A stretch of DNA of 64,000 nt from an uncultured Bacillota bacterium. GTDB taxonomy: Bacteria; Bacillota; Clostridia; Christensenellales; QAND01. Shown piece by piece: positions 966-46,261 of this stretch. The stretch's first letter is position 1, and each line of letters begins with the position of its first letter. The stretch covers positions 44,688-108,687 of the forward strand of contig CAJJKN010000003.1 of assembly GCA_905188085.1 (NCBI GenBank), in the 5' to 3' direction. Made by a program: the position numbers and the translations under genes. A model generated the notes under the pieces. That model searched no databases. It saw nothing but the letters and a program-made list of their open reading frames with translations, and had not been told where the DNA came from.

Positions 966-1475
966 ATGAAAGAAATCCAAAACACGCCGACAAAAACCGA
1001 TGAAATCACGCTTGCCTTGCGCGGCCTGTGCGCCAAACGAGCCAGCACCATCTGTTATATGATCCAGCAGGCCAAAGCCCATGGCGTTCAAGACGGCGTC
1101 GCCTTTGCCCGCGAAGCCGTTGCCCAATACGGAGCGGATATCGGCCGGGAGCTTAAAAACAAACTGAAAGATCCGGATGATCTTTTGGAATTTTCGCAAT
1201 ATTTCGGGGCCGGTACGGATCGCGATATCTATGAAATGGAGGTTGTGGAGCAAAGCGAAGACCGCTTTTATCTCGATTTTCATTATTGCCCCTATGTGGC
1301 CGAATGGCAAAAAATGGGGCGTGCGCCGGAGGAAATGGCCGAGCTTTGCGATATCGCTATGGAGGGAGACAGAGCCATCGGCGCCTCGTTTGACGGGTTT
1401 ACCTTTACTTTGGGCGAAACCATTGCCCAGGGGTGTCCCGCCTGCCAAATTCGCTTTGATAAGGTCAAAAAATAA
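966..1475 (+). CDS. Small Cys-containing protein, possibly L-2-amino-thiazoline-4-carboxylic acid hydrolase (ATC-hydrolase)-like family
   Basis: The 169-aa ORF has an RBS (aaaggggg) upstream. It carries a CPYVAEW…C…CPAC motif pattern that is reminiscent of the ATC_hydrolase family; the family call is from memory only. Confidence 0.5.
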   Translation: MKEIQNTPTKTDEITLALRGLCAKRASTICYMIQQAKAHGVQDGVAFAREAVAQYGADIGRELKNKLKDPDDLLEFSQYFGAGTDRDIYEMEVVEQSEDRFYLDFHYCPYVAEWQKMGRAPEEMAELCDIAMEGDRAIGASFDGFTFTLGETIAQGCPACQIRFDKVKK

Positions 1476-1486
1476 ACAACGCATCC

Positions 1487-1516
1487 CCCCGGGTTTCCGG
1501 GGGATTTTTACATTCT
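1487..1516 (+). terminator. Rho-independent terminator (catccccccgggtttccgggggattttta)
   Basis: Hairpin CCCCCGG/CCGGGGG followed by a T-run, placed after the 966..1475 stop codon. Confidence 0.75.
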
Positions 1517-1624
1517 TGCGCTTTATTTTTTCCAAGCGGTTTTCTCCATACAAAAAACGACCGGTTTTTGCCGATCGTTTTATCGTTATCGTTTTTCCTT
1601 GCCGGGATTTTGTATCCTTTGTCT

Positions 1625-2536
1625 TTACAGCTGCCCAATGAGAAATACAAACCGAAGCGCCAATTCGTCCACCCAGCGCCTGCGCAGCCGTTTCGGGTAA
1701 AACACCTTTTGTATCACATGGCGCAAATAGCCCTTTTCCGCAAACAACCGCACCGTTTTTTTCTGCGCCGGCGAAAGCTCATCGCCCACGGTATGATAGA
1801 AATCATCCAGCAAGATGCGATATTGGGCAAACCCATCGCCAAAAAACTTTTTGATCCGCCATTTCCATAAGCCGAAAAAGCCCATATTCGAAGAGGTAAC
1901 CGCCGAAGTATGCCGCCGATACAGCGCGCACGGTTCGTTATCGTAAACGATTTTCCCAAACGCAGCATACAGCATGCTCATCCAGGTGCCGCGTGCTTTT
2001 GCTTTTTGCGGCTTATGGGTAAACAGAAAGTCTTTGGCTGCGCGGTTGATCGCCATGGTAAATTCCAAACCGCATACCTCAAACAGCGTATCCTTCAATT
2101 CGATCGGCCGCGTCACTTTACCGGATTCCCCTACAATCTTCAGCGCACCGTCGCAAATATGATATCCGGCATAATACGCCACCGGCTTATCTTCCTCTTC
2201 CCGGGCCAGATGGGCCATGGCCCGCGAGATTTTCTGTTCCAGCCAAACATCGTCCTGGTCCGCAAAGAAAAACACGTCCCCCGGCACATCCAGATCCGTC
2301 AGCGCATAAAAACAAGCGGGATACCCCAGGTTTCCCTTGGTTTCCAGCAGATGAAACTTCTCATATTTGGCATCGTATTCTTCCAGGATTTTCGGCGTTG
2401 CATCCGAAGACCCGTCATCGCGCACATAAATCTCCACATCGGGATAATCCTGACGCAGGATGCTGTCCAGCTGCTGCGCCACGTATTTTTCCCCGTTGTA
2501 TGTGGACATCAGCACCACCGCTTTTTTGTTTTGCAT
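1625..2536 (-). CDS. Family 2 glycosyltransferase (rhamnosyltransferase-like)
   Basis: The N-terminus MQNKKAVVLMSTYNGEKYVAQQLDSILRQDYPDVEIYVRDDGSSDAT and a later DQDD motif match the GT2 / RgpB-like signature. Confidence 0.85.
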   Translation of the reverse strand: MQNKKAVVLMSTYNGEKYVAQQLDSILRQDYPDVEIYVRDDGSSDATPKILEEYDAKYEKFHLLETKGNLGYPACFYALTDLDVPGDVFFFADQDDVWLEQKISRAMAHLAREEEDKPVAYYAGYHICDGALKIVGESGKVTRPIELKDTLFEVCGLEFTMAINRAAKDFLFTHKPQKAKARGTWMSMLYAAFGKIVYDNEPCALYRRHTSAVTSSNMGFFGLWKWRIKKFFGDGFAQYRILLDDFYHTVGDELSPAQKKTVRLFAEKGYLRHVIQKVFYPKRLRRRWVDELALRFVFLIGQL

Positions 2537-2836
2537 GTTCTCTCCCCTTATATTTTGCCTGCCCTGTATTGTGAAAACGCGGCATGGAGTTCCTGCCGCG
2601 TCTGTTTTTTCTCGATAAATCCGCTAAATTATATCATAGCGCAGGCCCGAAATGCAATCTGCCGCTTTTTCTCTTTTCGGAGCCTACGGCCGGTTTGTCC
2701 TGTCATTTTGCAATCTAATTTCCCTTTGCAAAAACCGTCTATCCTCTTATCGCTTATCAATGCGCGGCTTTTCCCTGCATATAAAAAAATCCCGCTCTGC
2801 AAACAAGGAAAGCGGGCAAACGCCCGCCTTCTCTTT

Positions 2837-3583
2837 TTATTGATTCTGTTGTTGGCTCATATACGCCCGGCAAACTTCGTCCACCGGGCCGATCATTTTC
2901 ATATGCCCATGATCCAGCCACAGCGCTCTATGGCAAATGCGCTGCACCTGCTCGATGGAATGCGAGACAAACAAAATCGTCACGCCGTTTTCGCGCATCT
3001 GCGTAATGCGGCGTTCGCATTTTTGCTGAAATTGATAATCGCCCACGGCCAAAATCTCGTCACAGATCAAAATATCCGGCTCGATCACCGTTGCAATGGC
3101 AAACCCCAGGCGGGCCACCATGCCGGAAGAAAAGTTTTTCAGCGGCACATCCATAAATTCCCGCAGCTCTGCAAAATCGATGATCTCATCAAATTTGCCA
3201 AGCAGAAATTTTTTGGAATATCCCATCACGGAGCCGTTTAAAAACACATTTTCCCGTGCTGTCAGGTTCATATCAAACCCGGCGCCCAACTCAATCAGCG
3301 GCGCCAAAACGCCCTGCACTTTTACCTTGCCGGCCGACGGCTTGTAAATGCCGCTGATCAACTTTAGCATCGTGCTCTTGCCGGAGCCGTTTAGCCCCAC
3401 CAGCCCAAACACTTCGCCTTTATGCACCTGAAAGCTCACATCGTTGACCGCAATAAACTCGTTATACATCAAGTTTCGTTTTACGATTCGGATAAAATAT
3501 TCTTTCAGGTTGTCTACCTTTTCGGTGGAAAGGTTGAATTTCATCGTGACATTTTGCACGTCCACAACCACAGGCTGTTCCAT
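2837..3583 (-). CDS. Polysaccharide/teichoic-acid export ABC transporter ATP-binding protein (Wzt/TagH/RgpD-like)
   Basis: Walker A motif GLVGLNGSGKST is present, together with an ABC signature LSGGM-like motif (FSSGMVARL), Walker B ILICDE and an H-loop. Confidence 0.9.
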   Translation of the reverse strand: MEQPVVVDVQNVTMKFNLSTEKVDNLKEYFIRIVKRNLMYNEFIAVNDVSFQVHKGEVFGLVGLNGSGKSTMLKLISGIYKPSAGKVKVQGVLAPLIELGAGFDMNLTARENVFLNGSVMGYSKKFLLGKFDEIIDFAELREFMDVPLKNFSSGMVARLGFAIATVIEPDILICDEILAVGDYQFQQKCERRITQMRENGVTILFVSHSIEQVQRICHRALWLDHGHMKMIGPVDEVCRAYMSQQQNQ

Positions 3584-3597
3584 CGCACTTTCCTCCT

Positions 3598-4380
3598 TTA
3601 CACATACAGCACAAAGCGATCCTGCTTGCGCTTAAAGCACCACAGGCCCAGCACCAAAAACCCGAGAGCAAACGCCGTGGCAATCAACCACATCGAAATC
3701 GGCGGCACTGTGTTATACAGCAGCACCTGGCGCATCATCGTTACAAAATAATACATGGGGTTAAAGTGCATAATCGTCGTAATGATGCCCGGCAGATTGG
3801 CAAAATCCAACGGGTAGATGATGGGCGTGGCATACATCCAGGCCGTCAGCAGCACGCTGTACAGGTGCATCAAATCGCGGAAAAACACCGCCAGCGTGCT
3901 CAACAGCAGCCCCATTCCGATGGCAAATACCAAACACAGCATCACCACAAACGGAAACAGGAAAAATGTGAGCGTCGGCCATACGCCGGAGAAGATCATC
4001 ACGATCAACACCGCCACCATGGAAAGCAGCAGGTTCACGCAGGCAAACAGACACTTTTCCAACGGAAACATATATTTGGGAATGTAGATTTTCTTTAACA
4101 GCAGCGCATTGTCCAATACCGAGCTCATGGCCCCGTTGGTGCCTTCGCTGAAAAAGCTCCACAAAACGTTCCCCACCAGAAAATACAGGTGATAATTTTC
4201 AATTTGAAAACGAAACAGCCGGGCAAACACCGCCGAAATGACCACCATGGTCAAAAGCGGGTTTAGCACGCTCCACAATACGCCCAGCACGCTGCGCCGG
4301 TATTTCACCTTCAAATCGCGGCCGATCAGGTTTGCCAACAAAAACCGGTACCGCTTGAATACTTCAATGCTTGCCCTCAA
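3598..4380 (-). CDS. ABC-2 type polysaccharide export permease (Wzm/TagG/RgpC-like)
   Basis: A 260-aa polytopic hydrophobic protein placed immediately upstream of the ATPase gene, with the ABC-2 permease architecture. Confidence 0.85.
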   Translation of the reverse strand: MRASIEVFKRYRFLLANLIGRDLKVKYRRSVLGVLWSVLNPLLTMVVISAVFARLFRFQIENYHLYFLVGNVLWSFFSEGTNGAMSSVLDNALLLKKIYIPKYMFPLEKCLFACVNLLLSMVAVLIVMIFSGVWPTLTFFLFPFVVMLCLVFAIGMGLLLSTLAVFFRDLMHLYSVLLTAWMYATPIIYPLDFANLPGIITTIMHFNPMYYFVTMMRQVLLYNTVPPISMWLIATAFALGFLVLGLWCFKRKQDRFVLYV

Positions 4381-4384
4381 GCCA

Positions 4385-4933
4385 TTACCTCCAAGCGTCC
4401 AGCCCCGGATGTTTTTTATCCTTATCCGAAAGCAAAATTTCCACGCCTTCCGGGATCTGCCAATCGATGTTCAGCTGCGGATCGTTCCACAAAATGCCGC
4501 CTTCGTCCGTCGGGTCGTAAAACGCCGTACACTTATAGGCAAAGATGGCCTCTTCGCTCAGCACCGCAAACCCATGGGCAAACCCTTCCGGCACATAAAA
4601 CTGCCGTTTGTTTTCTTCGGACAAAAGGCAGCTTCTCCATTGCCCAAACGTGGGGCTTCCCTTGCGGATATCCACCGCCACATCCAGCACCGTACCGGAC
4701 AGCGCACGCACCAATTTCCCTTGCGGGTGCTTTATTTGAAAATGCAGCCCGCGCAGCACGCCCAGCCGGGATTTGCTCTGGTTATCCTGCACAAATTTCA
4801 TGTTCATGCCGGCTTCGGCAAAATCGCGTTCGCTGTATGTTTCCATAAAATAGCCGCGTTCATCGCCAAACACCGTCGGCTCTATGATTTTCAGCCCTTC
4901 AATGCCCGTTTCGATAAATTTGAATTTTCCCAT
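4385..4933 (-). CDS. rmlC: dTDP-4-dehydrorhamnose 3,5-epimerase
   Basis: MGKFKFIETGIEGLKIIEPTVFGDERGYFMETY… matches the RmlC cupin family. Confidence 0.92.
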   Translation of the reverse strand: MGKFKFIETGIEGLKIIEPTVFGDERGYFMETYSERDFAEAGMNMKFVQDNQSKSRLGVLRGLHFQIKHPQGKLVRALSGTVLDVAVDIRKGSPTFGQWRSCLLSEENKRQFYVPEGFAHGFAVLSEEAIFAYKCTAFYDPTDEGGILWNDPQLNIDWQIPEGVEILLSDKDKKHPGLDAWR

Positions 4934-4936
4934 CTT

Positions 4937-5992
4937 TTATTTCCCCTGATACATCTTGGCGTAATATTCCTGATAGGCGCCGCTGGTCACGCGTTCCATC
5001 CATTCTTTATGGTTCAAATACCATTCGATGGTCAGCACAATGCCCTTTTCAAACGGCGTTTCGGGATACCAGCCCAAATCGCGTTTGATCTTTTCCGGAT
5101 CTATGCCGTAGCGCTTGTCGTGCCCTTTCCGGTCTTCCACGTATTTGATCAGCTGTTCGCCCACCTGCTCGTCCACATGGTCGTGCACATATTGCAAAAT
5201 GGTCTTTACGATGAAAATGTTCGGCCGTTCGTTGTGGCCGCCCACGTTATACACTTCCCCTACCTTGCCGGAGGTGATTACCATATCAATGGCCTTACAA
5301 TGATCTTCCACATACAGCCAGTCGCGCACGTTCATGCCGTCGCCGTAAACCGGCAGCTGCTTGTGCTGTAAAGCGTTGTTGATCATCAGCGGGATCAGCT
5401 TTTCCGGGAATTGATACGGGCCGTAGTTGTTCGAGCAGCGCGTGATGTTTATCGGCAGGCCAAACGTATCGTGGAACGCCTGCACAAAAAAGTCTGCCGA
5501 GGCCTTGGCCGCGCTATACGGGCTGTGCGGGTTCAACGGCGTGGTTTCGGTAAAATATCCCGTTTCGCCCAGCGAACCGTATACTTCGTCGGTGGATACC
5601 TGCAAATATTTTACGCCCGGCTTAAAGCCCTCGTCCTCTGCCCAATGCTTTTTCGCCACGTTCAACAAATTTACCGTGCCGTTTACATTGGCCATTACAA
5701 ACGCATTGGGGTCTTTAATGCTGCGGTCCACATGGCTTTCGGCCGCAAAGTTTACCAGATAATCAATATCGTTTTGCGCAAAGATGGCGTCAATGGCCGC
5801 CTCGTCGCCAATATCCGCCTGCACAAAGCTGTAACGCGGGTCTTGGTCTATGCTCTTCAGGTTTTCCAGGTTGCCGGCATAGGTCAATTTGTCCACGTTG
5901 ATGATGCGAATGTCTTCATGCTTTTTCAGCATATACAGGATAAAGTTGGAGCCGATAAAGCCCGCTCCTCCCGTTACCAGATAGGTTTTCAT
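4937..5992 (-). CDS. rmlB: dTDP-glucose 4,6-dehydratase
   Basis: MKTYLVTGGAGFIGSNF Rossmann N-terminus plus YxxxK, typical of SDR-family RmlB. I trimmed the start to the ATG preceded by AAGGAGA; the track ORF extends to 6067. Confidence 0.92.
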   Translation of the reverse strand: MKTYLVTGGAGFIGSNFILYMLKKHEDIRIINVDKLTYAGNLENLKSIDQDPRYSFVQADIGDEAAIDAIFAQNDIDYLVNFAAESHVDRSIKDPNAFVMANVNGTVNLLNVAKKHWAEDEGFKPGVKYLQVSTDEVYGSLGETGYFTETTPLNPHSPYSAAKASADFFVQAFHDTFGLPINITRCSNNYGPYQFPEKLIPLMINNALQHKQLPVYGDGMNVRDWLYVEDHCKAIDMVITSGKVGEVYNVGGHNERPNIFIVKTILQYVHDHVDEQVGEQLIKYVEDRKGHDKRYGIDPEKIKRDLGWYPETPFEKGIVLTIEWYLNHKEWMERVTSGAYQEYYAKMYQGK

Positions 5993-6006
5993 TCGTTTTG
6001 TCTCCT

Positions 6007-6903
6007 TTAAGCAAAGATACCGCGTTGTTTTGCGTTTTCCATATACATTTTCAGCGCATCTTCCCACGGGCGCATTTCGTTGCCCACGGTGTTGCGCAGC
6101 ATGGCGTTATCCAGCGAAGAATAGGCCGGCCGCTTGGCAGGGGTCGGGTATTCCTCCGTTGTGCACGGGGTTACTTCGCACGGCACCTGGTAAAATTCCA
6201 TAATCTTTTTTGTAAAATCATACCAGCTGCAGGTGCCTTCGTTGGTGCAGTGGTAGGTGCCGTAGTTTGTCGTTTGCGCCAGCTTCAAAATATGATAGGC
6301 CAAATCGTTGGCGCTGGTGGGGTTGCCGAATTGGTCGTTTACCACCTTCACCTTGCCGTTTTCGCGCGCCAGACGGCACATGGTTTTCACAAAGTTATTG
6401 CCCACATAGCCATACAGCCAGGCCGTGCGCACGATAAAGCTTTTCGTACAGCACTGGCGGACAAGCGTTTCCCCCAGCTCCTTGCTTTTTCCGTACGCCG
6501 TCACCGGCGCGGTATGGTCCCATTCCTTGCGTGGGGTGGGCTCGTCGCCGGCAAACACATAGTCCGTAGAGGTATGCACCAATTTGGCCCCCAGCTCCTG
6601 GCACAGCACCGCCAGGTTCATCGGCAAAATCGCGTTGGCTTTCATCGCCGCGTCCAGTTCCGTTTCGCAGGCGTTTACATTGGTTATCGCCGCGCAGTTG
6701 ATCACAACATCCGGCTTTACAGTATACAAACACGCCCGGGCCTTTTCCATATCGGAAAAGTCCACCGTGTCCATATCCCTGTATACCACTTCCGCATGCT
6801 GGTAGGAAGGGTCGATCGGGCCGATCTCGGCCCGCCCGCTTTCCAGCATGCTTTTCAATTCATTGCCCAACTGCCCATAGGCTCCGGTAATCAACAGTTT
6901 CAT
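6007..6903 (-). CDS. rmlD: dTDP-4-dehydrorhamnose reductase
   Basis: MKLLITGAYGQLGNEL… matches RmlD. Confidence 0.9.
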   Translation of the reverse strand: MKLLITGAYGQLGNELKSMLESGRAEIGPIDPSYQHAEVVYRDMDTVDFSDMEKARACLYTVKPDVVINCAAITNVNACETELDAAMKANAILPMNLAVLCQELGAKLVHTSTDYVFAGDEPTPRKEWDHTAPVTAYGKSKELGETLVRQCCTKSFIVRTAWLYGYVGNNFVKTMCRLARENGKVKVVNDQFGNPTSANDLAYHILKLAQTTNYGTYHCTNEGTCSWYDFTKKIMEFYQVPCEVTPCTTEEYPTPAKRPAYSSLDNAMLRNTVGNEMRPWEDALKMYMENAKQRGIFA

Positions 6904-6917
6904 GCTGCGCCTCCTGT

Positions 6918-7793
6918 TTATGCCTGCTCCGCGCCGGCAATGCGGAACAGATATTTGCCATAATCCGTGGTTTTCAGTTTTTCTGCCTGGCTGAGCAACT
7001 GCTCACGGTCGATATATCCGTTGTTGTAGGCAATCTCTTCCAGGCAGGCAATATACAGCCCCTGGCGGATCTGCACAGCCTGTACAAAGTTTGCCGCATC
7101 CAGCATCGCGCGGTGCGTGCCGGTATCCAGCCAGGCCATGCCGCGGCCAAACAGTTCCACTTTCAATTCGCCCTTTTCCAAATAGGCGTTATTCACCGCC
7201 GTAATTTCAATTTCGCCGCGGGCCGAGGGTTTCACCCGTTTTGCAATTTCCACGACCTGGTTGTCATAGAAATACAAGCCCGGCACGGCATAGTTGCTCT
7301 TCGGCTTGGCCGGTTTTTCCTCAATAGACAACACATTGCCGTCCTCGTCAAAATCCACCACGCCAAACGCCTGCGGGTCTGCCACATGATAGCCGAAAAT
7401 CGTGGCGCCCTTCTCCCGAGCCGCCGCGCGTTTGAGCCGCTCGGTAAACCCATAGCCGTAGAAAATATTATCGCCCAACACCAGGCAAACGTTATCGTCT
7501 CCGATAAATTCTTCCCCTACGATAAACGCATCCGCCAGTCCGCGCGGCTTATCCTGCACTGCATATTGGATTTTCATGCCCAGCTGCGAGCCGTCGCCAA
7601 ACAGCTGTTCAAAGCCATGAATATCCCGCGGTGTGGAGATGATGAGCACCTCGCGAATGCCGGCCAGCATCAGCGTAGACATCGGATAATACACCATCGG
7701 TTTGTCATATACGGTCAGCATCTGTTTGGAGACCGCGATGGTGGACGGATACAGGCGCGTGCCCGCGCCCCCTGCCAAAATAATCCCTTTCAT
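6918..7793 (-). CDS. rmlA: Glucose-1-phosphate thymidylyltransferase
   Basis: [18 protein letters not shown]… matches RmlA. Start taken at the ATG that has AGGAG 8 nt upstream. Confidence 0.92.
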
Positions 7794-7844
7794 CTTACAC
7801 AACTCCTGTTTTTGGTTTTTCGTATCATACAATTGCTCGTCTTG

Positions 7845-8777
7845 TCAGCAATATAAAATCTGTCCGATTTTGCGCACCAGCCCGCCTTTAAACAGGCCGT
7901 ATTTGCACAGCGTATACCAGCGCGCAAGTTTGCTTTTTTGCGGCATAGCCGCAAACGCCCGGGCCGCCTGTTTTTCCCGTTCCGGCATTTTATCGCCAAA
8001 TTGTTTTACAAACGCCTCCGCCTGGGCATAGGTTTCCAGCAGCACCTGCTTGCTCTTTTGCCCCTGCGTTGCCCGCTTTGCCACATACCGGGCCGAGCCC
8101 GCGTTTTTGCTGCCCACCTGGTTGTTGCCGTGCTGGCGATAATCCATCGTCTGTTCTTTTTCCAGGCCGATTTTCCCAAAGCAGGCAGCCGTAAGTGCCA
8201 GATACCAATCATGCATAATCGCCTGCTCCGGCAAAGGCAGCACACAGCGAATTAAGGCGCGGTTTGCCATCATCGTGCAGCCCGTCACCACGTTTTGACA
8301 AAGCAGCTGGCAAAAGCCCGTGCGCGTTAAATCCAGCTTTTGATACGCCGCCATAGACGGTGCCATCTCTTTGCCGGCCTGGTCCACCACCCGCAGATCG
8401 CTATGCACCAACAGCGGCGTCTGTGTGCCGAATTGCTGCTCCATCTGCTTCATCTTGGCCCATGTGCGCGCAATCTTATCCGCATGCCATACATCGTCCT
8501 GGTCGCAAAACATCACATACGGCGCCGTTGCCTGCTCCATCAGCTTTGCAAAATTCTGTTTGGCCCCGCCGCTGGCTCCGCCTTGCACAAGGCAAATGCG
8601 CGCGTCCTTTTCCGCCCATTGCCGCAGCTTGGCGTTTGTACCGTCAAACGAGCCGTCATCACGGATCAACAGCTGCCAATCCGTTTCGCTCTGCGCCAAA
8701 ATAGAGCGTATCTGTTCCTCTATATAAGCCTGTCCATTATAACATGCCAACAGGATCTGTATGCTGTGCTGTGCCAT
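7845..8777 (-). CDS. Family 2 glycosyltransferase
   Basis: ILLACYNGQAYIEEQIRSILAQSETDWQLLIRDDGSFDGT followed by a DQDD motif, typical GT2. Confidence 0.85.
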   Translation of the reverse strand: MAQHSIQILLACYNGQAYIEEQIRSILAQSETDWQLLIRDDGSFDGTNAKLRQWAEKDARICLVQGGASGGAKQNFAKLMEQATAPYVMFCDQDDVWHADKIARTWAKMKQMEQQFGTQTPLLVHSDLRVVDQAGKEMAPSMAAYQKLDLTRTGFCQLLCQNVVTGCTMMANRALIRCVLPLPEQAIMHDWYLALTAACFGKIGLEKEQTMDYRQHGNNQVGSKNAGSARYVAKRATQGQKSKQVLLETYAQAEAFVKQFGDKMPEREKQAARAFAAMPQKSKLARWYTLCKYGLFKGGLVRKIGQILYC

Positions 8778-41554: not shown

Positions 41555-41659
41555 GGGATTTTTCCCTTTTTTCCGTGATTGTTGGCCAAATAAAGAAAAC
41601 TTGCAATCATTGGATTGACTTTTTTGTGAATTTTTGGTATAGTTTCAGGGCATTCTATT

Positions 41660-41748
41660 GGAGAGATGTCCGAGTGGTTTATGGAGCTGGTCTTGAAAAC
41701 CAGTGATGCCGTGAGGCACCGGGGGTTCAAATCCCTCTCTCTCCGCCA
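41660..41748 (+). tRNA. tRNA-Ser (anticodon UGA)
   Basis: GGAGAGATGTCCGAGTGG… has a long variable arm, the anticodon loop cTTGAaa, a GGTTCAAATCC T-arm and a CCA end. Confidence 0.85.
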
Positions 41749-41773
41749 GCATTCCAATAGAATTATACAGCCT

Positions 41774-41867
41774 GGAGAAGTACCCAAGTTTGGCTGAAGG
41801 GGCTCCCCTGCTAAGGGAGTAGGTCGGGTGTACCGGCGCGAGGGTTCGAATCCCTCCTTCTCCGCCA
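41774..41867 (+). tRNA. tRNA-Ser (anticodon GCU)
   Basis: GGAGAAGTACCCAAGTTTGG… has a long variable arm, the anticodon loop cTGCTaa, a GGTTCGAATCC T-arm and a CCA end. Confidence 0.85.
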
Positions 41868-42317
41868 AAATGCCTGAAAACCGCGTGTTTTCGGGCTTTT
41901 TTGTTGCCTTTTAACCTCCCGTCCCGCCCGTGCCGGAAAAATAAAATGGCTTAAAATAGGAAAAAATGGGTTCCTATTACGCCCCTATTCCGCCCGGTGT
42001 TTCTCCTCTGGCTCGTCCTATTTATAGCCCATTTTGTTTGTTAAATTTTATACAGAATAAGCCTGCAAGGCAAAATATACCCGGCCTTTGGGTATCTTTG
42101 TTCTAATCGGTCAATCCACTTTTGGGGGGATTTACCAATGCCTTATACACATTCCCCGCTCAATCCTACGATCGCATCCTCTTTCAGATACATATTTGCA
42201 TCTTTCTCTAGGAAGGCAAGCGCGCTTTATGGCATAATATACTTATAAATTCTTGTATTTGTTTTATGATTAAACTCGGCGCCCCTTGATTGGCGAAACC
42301 GGAAAGGAGGGACCTCC

Positions 42318-43562
42318 ATGGCATACAGCGAGCTTGTAAAAAACTTTGAAAAAGTCCGTGCCTATATGCGGGAATTTTATGTGTACGGGTTCAAAAGCCG
42401 TACCGAATACGATGCCAAAAGCGCGCGCTCCTATGATGATGAGCGGCGACGCATCGAAAGTTGGCTGGGAGACTATATGCATTTTTCGCAGACCGCCGAG
42501 GGGAAAAACATCTTTCTTTCCATAGACAGCCGCACCTGCCAACGCAATCCTTTCTATAAAGCGTGGAAAGCCAAAAGCTTTACCGATAAGGAGATTACCC
42601 TCCATTTCCTTTTGCTGGATATTCTCCACGCTCCGGATGTTAAAAAAACGATTCAGGAGCTTACGGAAGAAATCGACACGTATCTTTCCGATTTTGAAGC
42701 GCCTATGACGTTTGACGAATCCACCCTCCGGAAAAAGCTGAAGGAATATGAGGCAGAAGGCATTGTCAAAATTGAAAAACACGGGCGCAAAGTGTTCTAT
42801 CGACGCTCGGCAGACACGGAGATTTCTCCTTTAACGGATGCCATCGATTTTTTCAGCGAGGCCGCCCCCTGCGGCGTTGTCGGCTCTTTTCTTCAGGACA
42901 GGCAAAAAGCACACAATCCTCTGTTTTCCTTTAAGCATCATTATATTACCTCCGCGATAGACAGCGCCGTTTTGGCCCTGCTTTTTGAGGCCATGCATAA
43001 AAAATGCTATATCATGGCAGATAATCTGGGAAAACATTCGGGCAGCGTGCAAACCCTTCGCCTTGTTCCGCTTAAAATCTATATCAGCGCTCAAAACGGG
43101 CGTCAGCATTTAATTGCGTTTCAGGCAAAATCCAAGCGGTTAAATTCCTATCGGCTGGATTATATGTCCCATATAAAATTCGGCGAACCTTGCGAAAACT
43201 ACGATGCTTTAAGAGCCGCCCTTTCCAAGGTTGAAAATCATATGTGGGGCGTAAATTGCAGATGGAATACGGATCGTTTGGAGCATGTGGAGTTTGAGGT
43301 GAAAATCAACGACGATGAACAGTATATCGTCCGCCGGTTGGAGCGTGAAAAACGCTGCGGGCGCGTTGAGCAGCTGGATGAACATACCTACCGTTTTGTT
43401 GCGGATGTTTTTGATACCAACGAAATGCTGCCCTGGATTCGCACCTTTATCTCCCGGATTGTCAAAATGAACTTTTCAAACCGAACGGCCGAAAACAAAT
43501 TCAAGGCGGATTTAGCGGCCATGTATCAGCTCTATGGGCTTGACGGAGGGGATTCGGCATGA
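42318..43562 (+). CDS. WYL domain-containing regulator (PafB/PafC-like), first paralog
   Basis: A WYL-core-like segment VQTLRLVPLKIYISAQNGRQHLIAFQAKSKRLNSYRLDYMSHIKF is present. The RBS is GGAAAGGAGGGA. The gene is translationally coupled (ATGA) to the next WYL gene. Confidence 0.7.
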   Translation: MAYSELVKNFEKVRAYMREFYVYGFKSRTEYDAKSARSYDDERRRIESWLGDYMHFSQTAEGKNIFLSIDSRTCQRNPFYKAWKAKSFTDKEITLHFLLLDILHAPDVKKTIQELTEEIDTYLSDFEAPMTFDESTLRKKLKEYEAEGIVKIEKHGRKVFYRRSADTEISPLTDAIDFFSEAAPCGVVGSFLQDRQKAHNPLFSFKHHYITSAIDSAVLALLFEAMHKKCYIMADNLGKHSGSVQTLRLVPLKIYISAQNGRQHLIAFQAKSKRLNSYRLDYMSHIKFGEPCENYDALRAALSKVENHMWGVNCRWNTDRLEHVEFEVKINDDEQYIVRRLEREKRCGRVEQLDEHTYRFVADVFDTNEMLPWIRTFISRIVKMNFSNRTAENKFKADLAAMYQLYGLDGGDSA

Positions 43563-44467
43563 TTTTCAGCGAACTGTATTCCGTTTATTACAACACGGTG
43601 GCGGCCATTTTAACGCGCGCGGCCAAAGGAAATGCAACCGAAAGAGAATTGCAGCAGATTGTATTAGACACCGCCTTTTCCGAAAGCGTATTATCCATTC
43701 TGCCGTCGCTCAAATCCGGAAAATGGCCGTTGCTCCGCCATGATATGACCTCCGTGCTGCGCAACCCCCCTTCCATGCCGTTGACAACGCTGGAAAAACG
43801 GTGGTTAAAATCCATTGCCGCCGACCCCCGGATTCAACTGTTTCACATTCAAATGCCAAACCTGGACGATGTAGCCCCGCTGTTTACGCGCAAGGATTAT
43901 AAAATTTACGATCAATACGCCGATGGCGATCCTTTTGAGGATGCTGCGTATATCTCCCATTTTAATTTGATTCGAACCGCAATCCGCGCCAAAAAGCCGG
44001 TAAAAATTACCATGACCGGCCGCCACGGAAACCAGGCATGGGCGCGTTTTTTCCCAAAGGGCTTTGAGTATTCCGTCAAGGACGATAAAATCCGCATCCT
44101 TGCCTCCGGTTGTAAATTCCCGTATTTCAATTTAGGCCACGTCACAAGCTGCTATTATTATCACGGCAACGGCCCCTGGCGAGAAAAGACAAAGGCGGAC
44201 CGTGTGCAAAATCTTATGCTGGAAATCACGGACGAGCGCAATGCCTTAGAGCGCGCTATGCTACATTTTGCCCATTTTGAAAGACAGGCGGAGCGTGTGG
44301 ACGGCAATCGCTATCTTCTGCGCATCCGGTATTATGAAAACGACGAAACGGAAATGCTTATCCGTGTGCTGTCCTTTGGGCCTTATGTAAAAGTGCTTGC
44401 GCCGGAAAGCTTTATAGAATTGATCAAACAACGCCTTGTCTGTCAAAAAAGCTGTGAACTTAGATAA
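43559..44467 (+). CDS. WYL domain-containing regulator (PafB/PafC-like), second paralog
   Basis: The N-terminus MIFSELYSVYY is paralogous to MAYSELVKNF of the upstream gene. It has the WYL-like core PVKITMTGRHGNQAWARFFPKGFEYSVKDDKIRILASGCKFPYFNLGHVTSC and the C-terminal VLSFGPYVKVLAPESFIELIKQRL (WCX-like). Confidence 0.7.
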   Translation: MIFSELYSVYYNTVAAILTRAAKGNATERELQQIVLDTAFSESVLSILPSLKSGKWPLLRHDMTSVLRNPPSMPLTTLEKRWLKSIAADPRIQLFHIQMPNLDDVAPLFTRKDYKIYDQYADGDPFEDAAYISHFNLIRTAIRAKKPVKITMTGRHGNQAWARFFPKGFEYSVKDDKIRILASGCKFPYFNLGHVTSCYYYHGNGPWREKTKADRVQNLMLEITDERNALERAMLHFAHFERQAERVDGNRYLLRIRYYENDETEMLIRVLSFGPYVKVLAPESFIELIKQRLVCQKSCELR

Positions 44468-44614
44468 GTTCGCAGCTTTTTTTCCGTGAAAAACGGATTT
44501 ACGGCCCCTATACTCTGGTTGTAAGGGGCAGACAGCCCGCCGGTTCCGCCGAAAATGAACACTGTGAAAAAGCAAAAGATCGGCAATACCGGACAAAAAG
44601 AAAGGAGCAGCACG

Positions 44615-45790
44615 ATGATTGAAATCAAAGGAAAAGCGAACACGGCCCTCTGTTATGCCGCGATGATTGAGGATGAAGCCATTGAACAGATTCGCACCCT
44701 GTGCGACTATGACTTTACCGCCGGTTCCAAAATTCGGATCATGCCGGATGCCCATGCCGGCAAGGGCTGCACCATCGGCACAACGATGACCATCAAAGAC
44801 AAAGCCGTTCCCAACGTGGTCGGCGTTGATATCGGCTGCGGCATGTACACGGTCAACTTAGGGAAAATCGATATTGATTTTGTGAAGATGGATGAGGCGG
44901 CTCATTTTATCCCCAGCGGCAAAGAAGTATGGGAAGGCCGCATGAAACGGTTTGATTTAACCCGCCTTCTGTGCTATCGCAATCTAAAGCAGACCAAGCG
45001 TTTGGAGCGCAGCCTCGGCACGCTGGGCGGCGGCAACCATTTTATCGAGATTGACGCAGCCGCCGACGGCACAAAATATCTTGTCATCCATTCCGGCAGC
45101 CGCAACCTGGGCAAACAGGTGGCCGAGCTTTATCAGCACCTGGCGGTTGATTTAAACGCAGGCAAAGCCGAGCTCTTTGAAAAAAAGGAAGCGCTCATCC
45201 GCACCTACAAAGAACAGGGCCGCCGGGCGGAAATTCAAGCCGCTTTAAAGGCTTTGGAGCGCGCGTTTATCGCCAAAAAACCTACCCTCCCCGCCAGCCT
45301 CTGCTATCTGTATGGCACCTACCTTGACGACTATCTGCATGATGTGGAAATCTGCCAGCAATTTGCCGTGGAAAACCGTGAGAGAATGGCGGAAATCATC
45401 TTGGAGCGCACCGGGATGACTGCGCACGATTCGTTTCACACCATTCATAATTATATTGATACCAAGGAAATGATCCTGCGCAAAGGGGCGATAGCCGCGC
45501 ATAAAGACGAGCTTGTTTTGATTCCCATCAACATGCGAGACGGCAGCGTGCTGGCCCGCGGCAAGGGAAACCCGGAATGGAACTATTCCGCGCCGCACGG
45601 CGCCGGGCGGCTGATGTCTCGCACACAGGCCAAACAAACCCTCTCTTTGGAGGAGTATAAAAAAACCATGGAGGGCATTTACACCACCTCCGTCAACCAG
45701 GCAACGCTGGATGAAGCGCCCATGGCGTATAAATCCCTTGATGATATCCTCGGCGTAATCGGAGAATCTGTGGATATCATCGAAGTATAA
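44615..45790 (+). CDS. rtcB: RNA-splicing ligase RtcB (3'-phosphate/5'-OH RNA ligase)
   Basis: The metal- and GMP-site motifs MPDAHAGKGCTIG, GGGNHFIE and NYSAPHGAGR are present. AAAGGAG is 7 nt upstream of the ATG. Confidence 0.9.
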   Translation: MIEIKGKANTALCYAAMIEDEAIEQIRTLCDYDFTAGSKIRIMPDAHAGKGCTIGTTMTIKDKAVPNVVGVDIGCGMYTVNLGKIDIDFVKMDEAAHFIPSGKEVWEGRMKRFDLTRLLCYRNLKQTKRLERSLGTLGGGNHFIEIDAAADGTKYLVIHSGSRNLGKQVAELYQHLAVDLNAGKAELFEKKEALIRTYKEQGRRAEIQAALKALERAFIAKKPTLPASLCYLYGTYLDDYLHDVEICQQFAVENRERMAEIILERTGMTAHDSFHTIHNYIDTKEMILRKGAIAAHKDELVLIPINMRDGSVLARGKGNPEWNYSAPHGAGRLMSRTQAKQTLSLEEYKKTMEGIYTTSVNQATLDEAPMAYKSLDDILGVIGESVDIIEV

Positions 45791-46123
45791 AGCCCATTTA
45801 TAATTTTAAGGCGTGAGACTGATGCCGTGCACACAGAATTTAAAATGCCAAAAAAGGCAATCCCCTCATTCCTATGGTGTCCTTGGATTAACTCTATCAA
45901 AGCCGTTTCTTTTACAGAAACGGCTTTTCTGTTTTAGGCTTTTTCTATGGCGTTTCTGTCCTTTCAAGCCTTCATCGCTTTGATGGATGCGTCTTTTTTC
46001 CATAAATCAAACTTGGCAAAGGCATGCCCTCTTTTGCCCATCCGAAAACGCCAAAAGCCTGCTCTGTACGCCAAACTTTCATCTTTTCCTCTCCCTTTGT
46101 TTTTCCCTCCTCGCGGAAAACCG

Positions 46124-46152
46124 TTGATTTTTTTCCGTTCTCACGCTACAAT
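46124..46152 (+). promoter_or_regulatory. Putative sigma70-type promoter (TTGATT-17-TACAAT) for the methyltransferase gene
   Basis: Consensus-like -35 and -10 hexamers with 17-nt spacing lie ~110 nt upstream of the 46262 start. Confidence 0.45.
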
Positions 46153-46261
46153 ATGGCCAAACGGATTCTTTGCAAAAACAGTTTCGTATCAAACGATGCC
46201 GCCGATGTGCGGCTTTTCCAAAGCCCAGTAGTTAGGCATAGCTAACCAGTAAAGAGAAGAG

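Follow-up and report, generated by a model that had tools for sequence, protein, structure and literature searches.

The stretch analysed here (the window) comprises 64,000 nt of contig CAJJKN010000003.1 from an uncultured Bacillota bacterium. It contains two adjacent genes, here called A and B, whose products are predicted to be WYL-domain transcription factors, and downstream of them rtcB, the gene of an RNA ligase, with a conserved 21-nt box in its promoter region. It is likely that A and B form a heteromeric WYL factor that gates rtcB through this box and through a nucleic-acid ligand; this view of binding and expression is drawn from the comparison of related loci and from predicted structures. 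The comparison set included 80 related loci from different species, among them members of Lachnospiraceae, Oscillospiraceae, Christensenellales, Merdimmobilis, Yeguia and Ruthenibacterium. The three genes and their control elements all lie on the + strand.

Predicted folds of the A and B proteins

Gene A (42318..43562) encodes the putative large subunit of 414 amino acids (aa) and gene B (43559..44467) the small subunit of 302 aa. The two adjacent open reading frames (ORFs) and their ATGA overlap, already given in a preliminary description of the locus, were confirmed from the ORF list. In the Pfam searches A scored 19.9 bits for the WYL domain PF13280 (gathering cut-off 21.8) and 15 bits for WCX, while B scored 23.7 bits for WCX (cut-off 23.9) and gave no match to PF13280. 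The PADLOC model of CRISPR-associated WYL proteins matched A at 1.2e-9 and B at 5.5e-8, and a PaaX/ArsR-like winged helix-turn-helix (wHTH) signal was present at aa 112-167 of A. Many close homologues carry precomputed matches to PF13280 (WYL) or PF25583, and the NCBI name of many of them is 'WYL domain-containing protein'.

Because the sequence-only domain profiles remained below threshold, the class assignment relied on structure prediction. The AlphaFold2 (AF2) model of B had a predicted local distance difference test score (pLDDT) of 86.6 and that of A 67.7, the first 90 aa of the latter being unreliable (pLDDT <50). The Foldseek search with A found DriD first at 1.8e-10, then PafBC, CapW and BrxR, with WYL1 also matched, and the search with B found DriD at 4.6e-9, then PafBC, BrxR, CapW and WYL1. 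The top 30 matches of both models consisted solely of these five WYL proteins, all with probability 1.0, and the structural alignments spanned more than 300 columns, the full length of the proteins. Both models show the succession of wHTH, linker, WYL barrel and ferredoxin-like WCX domain known from the solved WYL factors. At the level of structure prediction, the placement of A and B in the HTH-WYL-WCX class of transcription factors can be considered settled. The WYL and WCX domains of the preliminary description were thus upheld by the predicted folds and the PADLOC model, with borderline Pfam scores and no Pfam WYL match in B, and the segments it had quoted map inside the predicted WYL barrels and the WCX domain.

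In the model of A, a highly conserved N-terminal domain (aa 1-90) precedes a winged HTH (approximately aa 90-165), a WYL Sm-like barrel (approximately aa 216-291) and WCX (approximately aa 322-406). In B, a helical, wHTH-like N-terminal part is followed by a divergent WYL-like barrel (approximately aa 129-200) and WCX (approximately aa 216-297). Candidate residues of the ligand groove, mapped by eye, are in A the invariant R279 and D281 within SYRLDY, and in B the NLGRI motif with conserved N191, L192 and R194 together with an invariant EYSxKDxKxR patch. The N-terminal 90 aa of A (window positions 42318-42590) form its most conserved part, with many invariant aromatic and arginine residues. 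This region has no Pfam match, and no counterpart in PafB/C, DriD, BrxR or CapW.

The homologues of A form more than 7,400 clusters, and the B family 1,815 clusters at 50% identity in a full-library profile search. The possibility that A and B are recent paralogues was rejected, as hhalign aligned only 52 columns, in the WYL cores (E = 2e-4, probability 45%). The two proteins, earlier described as paralogues with similar N-termini, are in fact very distant; the N-terminal likeness is a superficial xxSEL match that was not recovered by profile-profile comparison.

Pairing of A and B

B directly follows A in every one of the 80 loci whose contig reaches far enough. In the window the stop codon of A and the start codon of B share 4 nt (ATGA), an overlap present in 47 of 77 loci, with 14 nt in 17 others. 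The B-family profile search also detected natural A-B fusions 685-799 aa long, with B as their C-terminal half (P0366, P0378, P0472, P0480, P0499 and P0508). The N-terminal halves of the two fusions inspected were 32-38% identical to A over its whole length and were joined to the B part by a linker, in one of them rich in Ser and Gly. The adjacency, the overlap and the fusions point to A and B probably being subunits of one heteromeric WYL regulator.

The RtcB ligase

The third gene, rtcB (44615..45790), encodes an RNA 3'-phosphate/2',3'-cyclic-phosphate ligase of 391 aa, recognised from PF01139, the catalytic motifs and its orthologues. Pfam PF01139 matched at E = 1.3e-53 (183 bits) and phrog_1075 at 2.7e-121. 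In the alignment with Pyrococcus horikoshii RtcB (PDB 1uc2), the D..C, GGGNHF, HSGSR and PHGAGR motifs coincide with its catalytic positions, so that both the metal-binding and the His-GMP motifs of the family are present, and a complete RtcB with an intact active site after B, as described before, was confirmed. The protein does not belong to the PrfH-associated RtcB2 group: its TIGR03073 score was 115.6 bits against a cut-off of 271.8, and no prfH gene was present in the annotation of +/-10 kb.

The mechanically called ORF (44555-45790) begins 60 nt early. Since homologues align from MIEIKG and a ribosome-binding site, AAAGGAG, is present at 44601-44607, the real start is the ATG at 44615, and 44555-44614 belongs to the transcribed leader. 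On public contigs some gene callers annotate RtcB as 400 or 411 aa. An intrinsic terminator of rtcB, with a 12-bp stem and a T run, is located at 45899..45927.

RtcB is present downstream of A-B in about 50 of the 80 related loci, with an identity of 66-83% in most and about 50% in a few. The expected conservation of the WYL-WYL-RtcB trio was supported to this extent, while the adjoining tRNA-Ser is not general. Neither RtcA, archease nor a sigma54 activator was found within +/-10 kb of the locus, as earlier stated, in the precomputed Pfam annotation of identical contigs (the remainder of the window was not screened); genes with PF00158 (sigma54 activator) or PF01137 (RtcA) were likewise lacking within this distance.

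Terminator, 21-nt box and rtcB promoter

The start of rtcB lies 147 nt past the stop codon of B. The A-B transcript probably ends at an intrinsic terminator, a 17-bp hairpin followed by a T run (44445..44482). The hairpin folds at -21.8 kcal/mol (z = -6.4), and none of 200 shuffled sequences was equally stable. With its 5' arm it falls in the final codons of B and with its 3' arm it reaches into the box, and both arms are conserved in sequence among the loci. The 5' arm encodes the conserved C-terminal peptide of B, QKSCEL, and the 3' arm is the first part of the box, so that protein, RNA and DNA constraints share the same 40 bases.

The box, TTCGCAGCTTTTTTTCCGTGA (44469..44489), is the proposed binding site of A/B. 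It has the consensus TTCGCA-NN-T7-CCGTGA, sits directly after the stop codon of B over the -35 position and covers about -53 to -33, counted from a predicted transcription start near 44522. The promoter scan placed the rtcB promoter at 44486..44514, with a -35-like GTGAAA, a 17-nt spacer and a -10 element TATACT (9 of 12 matches). These elements indicate that rtcB is a transcription unit separate from A-B. The earlier claim that RtcB is translationally coupled to, or simply co-transcribed with, A-B was not supported, as the terminator hairpin and a separate promoter intervene.

In the window the box has one exact match, with 0.01 expected by chance. With 0-1 mismatches it follows B in about 60 of the 80 loci, including those where B is as low as 44-50% identical, and it is near-invariant in loci whose proteins are just 44-77% identical. 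A second copy is present 70-130 nt upstream of A in 17 loci, and because the sequence 5' of the box is unrelated there, no hairpin can form at these copies. All 84 box instances have one orientation, with the box start 40 nt before the -10 element, and the logo of 65 distinct sites shows the -10 element (TATAAT or TATACT) and the spacing to be conserved. In locus L087, where the repair genes are divergent from A-B, the box is on the opposite strand ahead of DUF2828-RtcB.

The box could be taken as a mere 3' arm of the B terminator. This was rejected because a partner arm is missing from the copies in front of A and from that in L087. The comparison indicates that the box is a cis element belonging to the promoter of the repair operon, and often to that of the regulator genes too. 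The functional tie between the pair and RNA repair, suggested in the preliminary description, stands on the shared promoter box and the synteny, its main cis element at 44469-44489 having then been missed. The sequence TTGATTTTTTTCCGT (46120-46152), in the promoter-like region of the downstream methyltransferase gene, resembles the T7CCGT core, probably by chance. The T7CCGT string at about 46128-46139 was considered as a second box and treated as a chance occurrence, being without the TTCGCA half and having the wrong spacing.

Repair operons of the related loci

Among the relatives the box-driven operons are larger, and the window represents the minimal, RtcB-only form of the system. In 37 loci (among L003-L077; e.g. 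L011:10022-11491) a DUF2828/DUF7788 (vWA) protein of about 490 aa is encoded before or after RtcB; phrog_850, annotated as 'RNA-binding protein', matches it at 1e-134. Eight loci encode an SPFH/Band-7 protein, and RlaP follows RtcB in L063 and L091. In some loci DUF2828, SPFH or RlaP occurs alongside RtcB or in its place. In a divergent clade (L046, L047, L054, L055, L061-L063, L067 and L091) it is SPFH/Band-7 that the box drives, in some cases together with RtcB and RlaP; these loci have small DUF4275 and unannotated genes interspersed and lack RNA modules.

Between the box and the first gene there are often 1-6 tandem RNA modules (L003-L077; e.g. L011:8145-8772 and L005:8145-8741). Each has the form AAAG-R-N4-5 / ACAGCAA / payload / N4-5-Y-CTTG, in which ACAGCAA is an invariant 5' bulge and the closing stems covary between modules. 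Many of the payloads are tRNA-like, scoring 35-51 bits against the Rfam tRNA model, and have no acceptor stem; their anticodon-like loops read CAU, GAA/AAA, UUU, UCG or UAA. An alignment of 19 modules included compensatory changes in 12 of 23 base pairs, and the covariance model R1 built for them matched at 92 places in the loci but nowhere in the window. No Rfam family beyond the generic tRNA model was found for the intergenic RNAs, and the YrlA and Y RNA models did not match them. Based on covariance-model matches, the modules co-occur with DUF2828, being present in 33 of 35 loci that have DUF2828 and in 4 of 22 that lack it (Fisher p = 3.6e-9, uncorrected for phylogeny), and they are absent from the SPFH-type loci. 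The DUF2828 protein may act as a Ro60-like scaffold; its profile gave no match against PDB sequences, Ro60 included.

In the window tblastn was negative for DUF2828 and SPFH, and neither the pattern scan nor the R1 covariance model detected an RNA module. A remnant of any of the three was also sought at 45791-46261 and 44468-44614, and nothing was found. The start of the rtcB leader, AAGGGGCAGACAGC (44523..44536), resembles in the alignments the 5' half of the first RNA module of the relatives and has no closing strand. In L013 (8515-10083) and L014 a 522-aa protein replaces RtcB after a truncated RNA array. It has a coiled coil and a C-terminal CHAP/NlpC-like region, typical of conjugative elements, and suggests a mobile element inserted into the operon.

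On Enterococcus raffinosus megaplasmids a pair 39% identical to A/B lies divergent beside Hen1-Pnkp-RlaP (L089, pCX012922, positions 1312-8146; also L092). There, on the Hen1 side, a half-conserved box, CTCGCACCCTTTTTT (CTCGCA-CC-CTTTTTT), precedes a -10-like TAAGAT by 40 nt. Because this pair adjoins a repair system of different chemistry, the A/B family is, on comparative grounds, tied to RNA repair as such and not to RtcB specifically.

Comparison with known regulators

The WYL factor most similar in organisation is PafBC of Actinobacteria (PDB 6sj9, 7p5x and 9fnd), in which two adjacent genes also each encode an HTH-WYL-WCX protein. Dimerisation of PafB and PafC is mediated by their WCX domains, and natural fusions of the two exist (PMC6789036); these fusions, known from some Actinobacteria, are paralleled by the A-B fusion proteins. 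PafBC works by sigma adaptation, taking the place of -35 recognition, and its activating ligand is single-stranded DNA (ssDNA) lying across both WYL domains; according to the same paper of 2025, no heterodimeric WYL factors had been reported besides PafBC and its orthologues (PMC11804915). A heteromer formed through WCX domains, with a nucleic-acid ligand in the WYL domains, is likewise proposed for A/B, and both have a promoter element upstream of a normal -10.

There are also several differences. No sequence orthology between A/B and PafBC was detectable (E ~1-2), and A has the extra conserved domain of about 90 aa at its N-terminus, while the HTH of B is degenerate. The A/B pair is clostridial and PafBC actinobacterial, the putative targets of A/B are RNA-repair genes whereas PafBC controls about 150 DNA-damage genes, and the A/B box of 21 nt at -53 to -33 contrasts with the -26 element of PafBC. 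Neither a Pup-proteasome locus nor a RecA-NDp/-26 element was present, the context being clostridial with RNA-repair neighbours.

Both A and B have their best structural match in DriD of Caulobacter (PDB 8tp8 and 9pfq), an activator that single-stranded nucleic acid turns on. DriD sites on DNA overlap the -35 position and keep a constant distance to the -10 element (PMC13004042). DriD differs in being a homodimer with a pseudo-palindromic site and a ligand of ssDNA from DNA damage, whereas the A/B locus has two different subunits, an asymmetric box and putative targets in RNA repair. BrxR and CapW, the repressors of BREX and CBASS, resemble A/B in the HTH-WYL-WCX fold, in being encoded beside the system they control and in having operators at promoters. 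In contrast to what is proposed for A/B, they are homodimeric repressors with palindromic operators and phage-defence targets.

In its logic the locus corresponds to RtcR-RtcBA of Escherichia coli and Salmonella, where a nucleic-acid-sensing regulator is encoded beside rtcB and the signal is tRNA fragments with cyclic-phosphate ends (PMC7790460). RtcR is a CARF-AAA+ sigma54 enhancer-binding protein, while A/B is a WYL pair at a sigma-A-type promoter; with its sigma-70-type rtcB promoter, the locus is not an RtcR-regulated Rtc operon. In a general statement, the Aravind group has named WYL and CARF factors as possible sensors of RNAs with cyclic-phosphate ends and possible regulators of repair pathways (PMC9503650).

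The operons of the relatives also resemble ribonucleoprotein (RNP) systems, in that stem-closed tRNA-like RNAs occur with a large helical-repeat/vWA protein, here DUF2828/DUF7788 (phrog_850). Operons of Rsr (Ro60), Y RNA and RtcB were reportedly treated by Chen et al. in 2014, and a predicted RNP of ROT/TROVE and tRNA-like RNA is said to go back to Burroughs and Aravind in 2016. Such a predicted ROT/TROVE-plus-tRNA-like repair RNP is also mentioned in PMC7824862. The window itself has none of the Ro60/Y-RNA parts, which are present in the relatives, and the regulator of the Ro60-type operons is RtcR while that of the A/B relatives is a WYL pair.

Proposed mechanism and alternative explanations

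Under the proposed regulation of rtcB, A and B would be made in fixed proportion from their overlapping genes and would most likely form a heterodimer through their WCX domains, the A-B transcript stopping at the hairpin that overlaps the end of B. The heterodimer would bind the box at about -53 to -33 of the rtcB promoter, and a nucleic-acid ligand in the WYL domains would turn rtcB on. The most plausible ligand would be RNA fragments from cut tRNA or rRNA, because of the repair targets and the precedent of RtcR (PMC7790460). RtcB would then reseal RNAs with 2',3'-cyclic-phosphate or 3'-phosphate ends and 5'-OH ends. The core idea of a PafBC-like WYL pair wired to RNA repair, already put forward in the preliminary description, is supported by structure, synteny, fusions and the shared box, and the coupling, the close paralogy and the islet were set aside.

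Several observations weigh against this view. The Pfam scores of the window's own A and B for WYL and WCX fall just below the curated cut-offs, and the A-family profile searched against PDB sequences reached only E = 1.4 for PafC and E = 2.2 for PafB, while the B-family profile gave no match there. For aa 1-90, where A is most conserved, no fold could be recognised and the model is of low confidence, and the N-terminal domain of B is not clearly a DNA-binding HTH. A convincing box was not recovered at the window's own A promoter in a search allowing up to 5 mismatches. What was read from the sequence there is a possible degenerate remnant, TTTGCATCTTTCTCTAGGAAG (42195..42243), with -10-like hexamers 38-43 nt downstream; having 8 mismatches to the box, it is a weak candidate for the A-B promoter and only suggestive. 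As the 3' arm of the terminator overlaps the box, the conservation of the box after B could partly reflect the hairpin. In addition, the pair is without box or repair gene nearby in six loci with adequate sequence (L033, L040, L052, L069, L075 and L080), and on pTS1 of Treponema saccharophilum (L090) it is without box or recognisable RNA-repair genes nearby. These boxless pairs either have their targets elsewhere or have been recruited to other roles. The neighbours of the Treponema pair are a NUDIX protein and a diguanylate cyclase.

The GTGAAA -35-like element together with a good -10 could give basal activity, and this would fit repression equally well. It is possible, though less probable, that A/B is a ligand-released repressor of the BrxR/CapW type, bound to the box over the -35 and dissociating upon contact with damage-derived nucleic acid. 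The promoter under the box looks functional alone (GTGAAA, 17-nt spacer, TATAAT or TATACT), the box at the A promoter in 17 loci would give the negative autoregulation typical of repressors, and BrxR and CapW are among the structural matches; the WYL regulators of defence systems have also been described as repressors (PMC11888443). However, the asymmetric box keeps one orientation and one -10 distance in all 84 instances, a geometry expected of activators coupled to RNA polymerase (DriD, PafBC) and not needed by an operator, and the best structural matches are the activators DriD and PafBC. An activator coupled to RNA polymerase is favoured over a simple repressor because of the fixed box orientation and distance to the -10 element, and from the sequence comparison activation appears appreciably, not overwhelmingly, more probable than repression.

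It would be very unlikely that A/B does not regulate rtcB at all and is instead an RNA-binding accessory complex, like WYL1 with Cas13d, the box being read by RNA polymerase or some other factor. The WYL and WCX folds are typical of RNA-binding proteins (PMC6789036), WYL1 (PDB 6oaw) is among the structural matches and a hairpin uses part of the box as its 3' arm. Yet A has a clear wHTH and both models align to complete HTH-WYL-WCX transcription factors; there is no hairpin partner for the box copies in L087 and ahead of A, and no other regulator gene is conserved in the related loci. Also the three-domain architecture and the two-gene arrangement would fit a PafBC orthologue serving a DNA-damage regulon, with rtcB adjacent by coincidence. 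This has hardly any likelihood: the sequence match to PafB/PafC is not significant, the Pup-proteasome context is lacking and the box is unrelated to the -26 element, and the linkage to RNA repair has been kept over about 60 loci and two different ligase systems, a synteny by which such an orthologue appears effectively refuted.

The preferred view of A/B as an activator of rtcB might be extended to an RNA-damage alarm that reads cleaved tRNA-shaped RNAs, the arrays of the relatives included, and this extension is regarded as unlikely. According to it, the box-driven transcripts of the relatives would start with tRNA-like decoys held by the DUF2828/vWA scaffold, with anticodon-like loops resembling those of Met, Phe, Lys, Arg or Leu tRNAs. 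Anticodon nucleases would cut the decoys and free fragments with cyclic-phosphate ends, which would bind the two non-identical WYL domains and raise the expression of the repair operon further. The minimal heterodimer of the window would then sense cellular tRNA fragments directly.

Genomic context and the origin of the locus

Upstream of gene A, and outside the module, there are two complete tRNA-Ser genes, on which ARAGORN and Rfam concur. The gene with anticodon UGA (41660..41748, + strand; Rfam tRNA 57.3 bits, full model) has a promoter-like site at 41615-41643 in the promoter scan, and that with anticodon GCU (41774..41867, + strand) is followed by a terminator at 41872-41896. The stretch of about 450 bp between the tRNA pair and A has a GC content of 41-48%.

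In the preliminary description this position was taken as a mark of a horizontally acquired islet of the three genes, integrated beside the tRNA-Ser pair. As an explanation of the locus this is improbable, even if some of its signs are present. The GC content is 41-50% over 41800-44800 against 55-61% upstream, and the genes flanking the window module are conserved in none of the related loci, the neighbours differing from species to species. The A/B family extends to Spirochaetota and Enterococcus megaplasmids, the module is carried on two IMG/VR contigs, and in L001, the closest non-conspecific locus, a tRNA-Ser is again found 115-201 nt upstream of A. Against the islet, no integrase or other mobility gene was present within +/-10 kb in the precomputed Pfam annotation, and no att-like direct repeat of a tRNA 3' end was found. 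A tRNA directly 5' of A is present in just 2 of the 80 related loci (Ser-CGA in L001, Pro in L063), six independent conspecific metagenome contigs have an identical neighbourhood, and the family was not found in isolated phage genomes. The tRNA-Ser position was consequently not borne out as an islet mark; horizontal spread of the A/B family as such is likely.

Implications for the regulation of RNA repair

In the searchable literature no experimental study was found of this WYL and RtcB system, of DUF2828 with RtcB, or of RtcB with SPFH and tRNA-like RNAs, in line with the earlier remark that the arrangement had not been characterised experimentally in Firmicutes. From sequence and predicted structure, A/B is taken to represent a family of heteromeric WYL regulators distinct from PafBC, the second of its kind, which is devoted to RNA repair and has a 21-nt box of its own. 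If this is true, a second heteromeric family would be added to the WYL transcription factors, and A/B would probably be the first WYL factor with RNA instead of ssDNA as its physiological ligand. Should the less likely alarm with tRNA-like decoys be true, A/B would be the first WYL transcription factor to sense RNA and the second to be heterodimeric, and it would correspond to RtcR on the sigma-A side.

The switching on of RNA repair is known for one regulator only, RtcR, mainly in Proteobacteria. The A/B locus would represent a compact and widespread alternative in gut Clostridia, with thousands of protein clusters, and its well-defined parts, two subunits, one 21-nt box and one target gene, make it directly testable. 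The link of one regulator family to three different cassettes (RtcB; RtcB with tRNA-like RNAs and DUF2828; Hen1-Pnkp-RlaP) points to a damage signal shared by them, and knowledge of this signal would help to explain how the gut microbiota tolerates ribotoxins and ribosome-targeting antibiotics.

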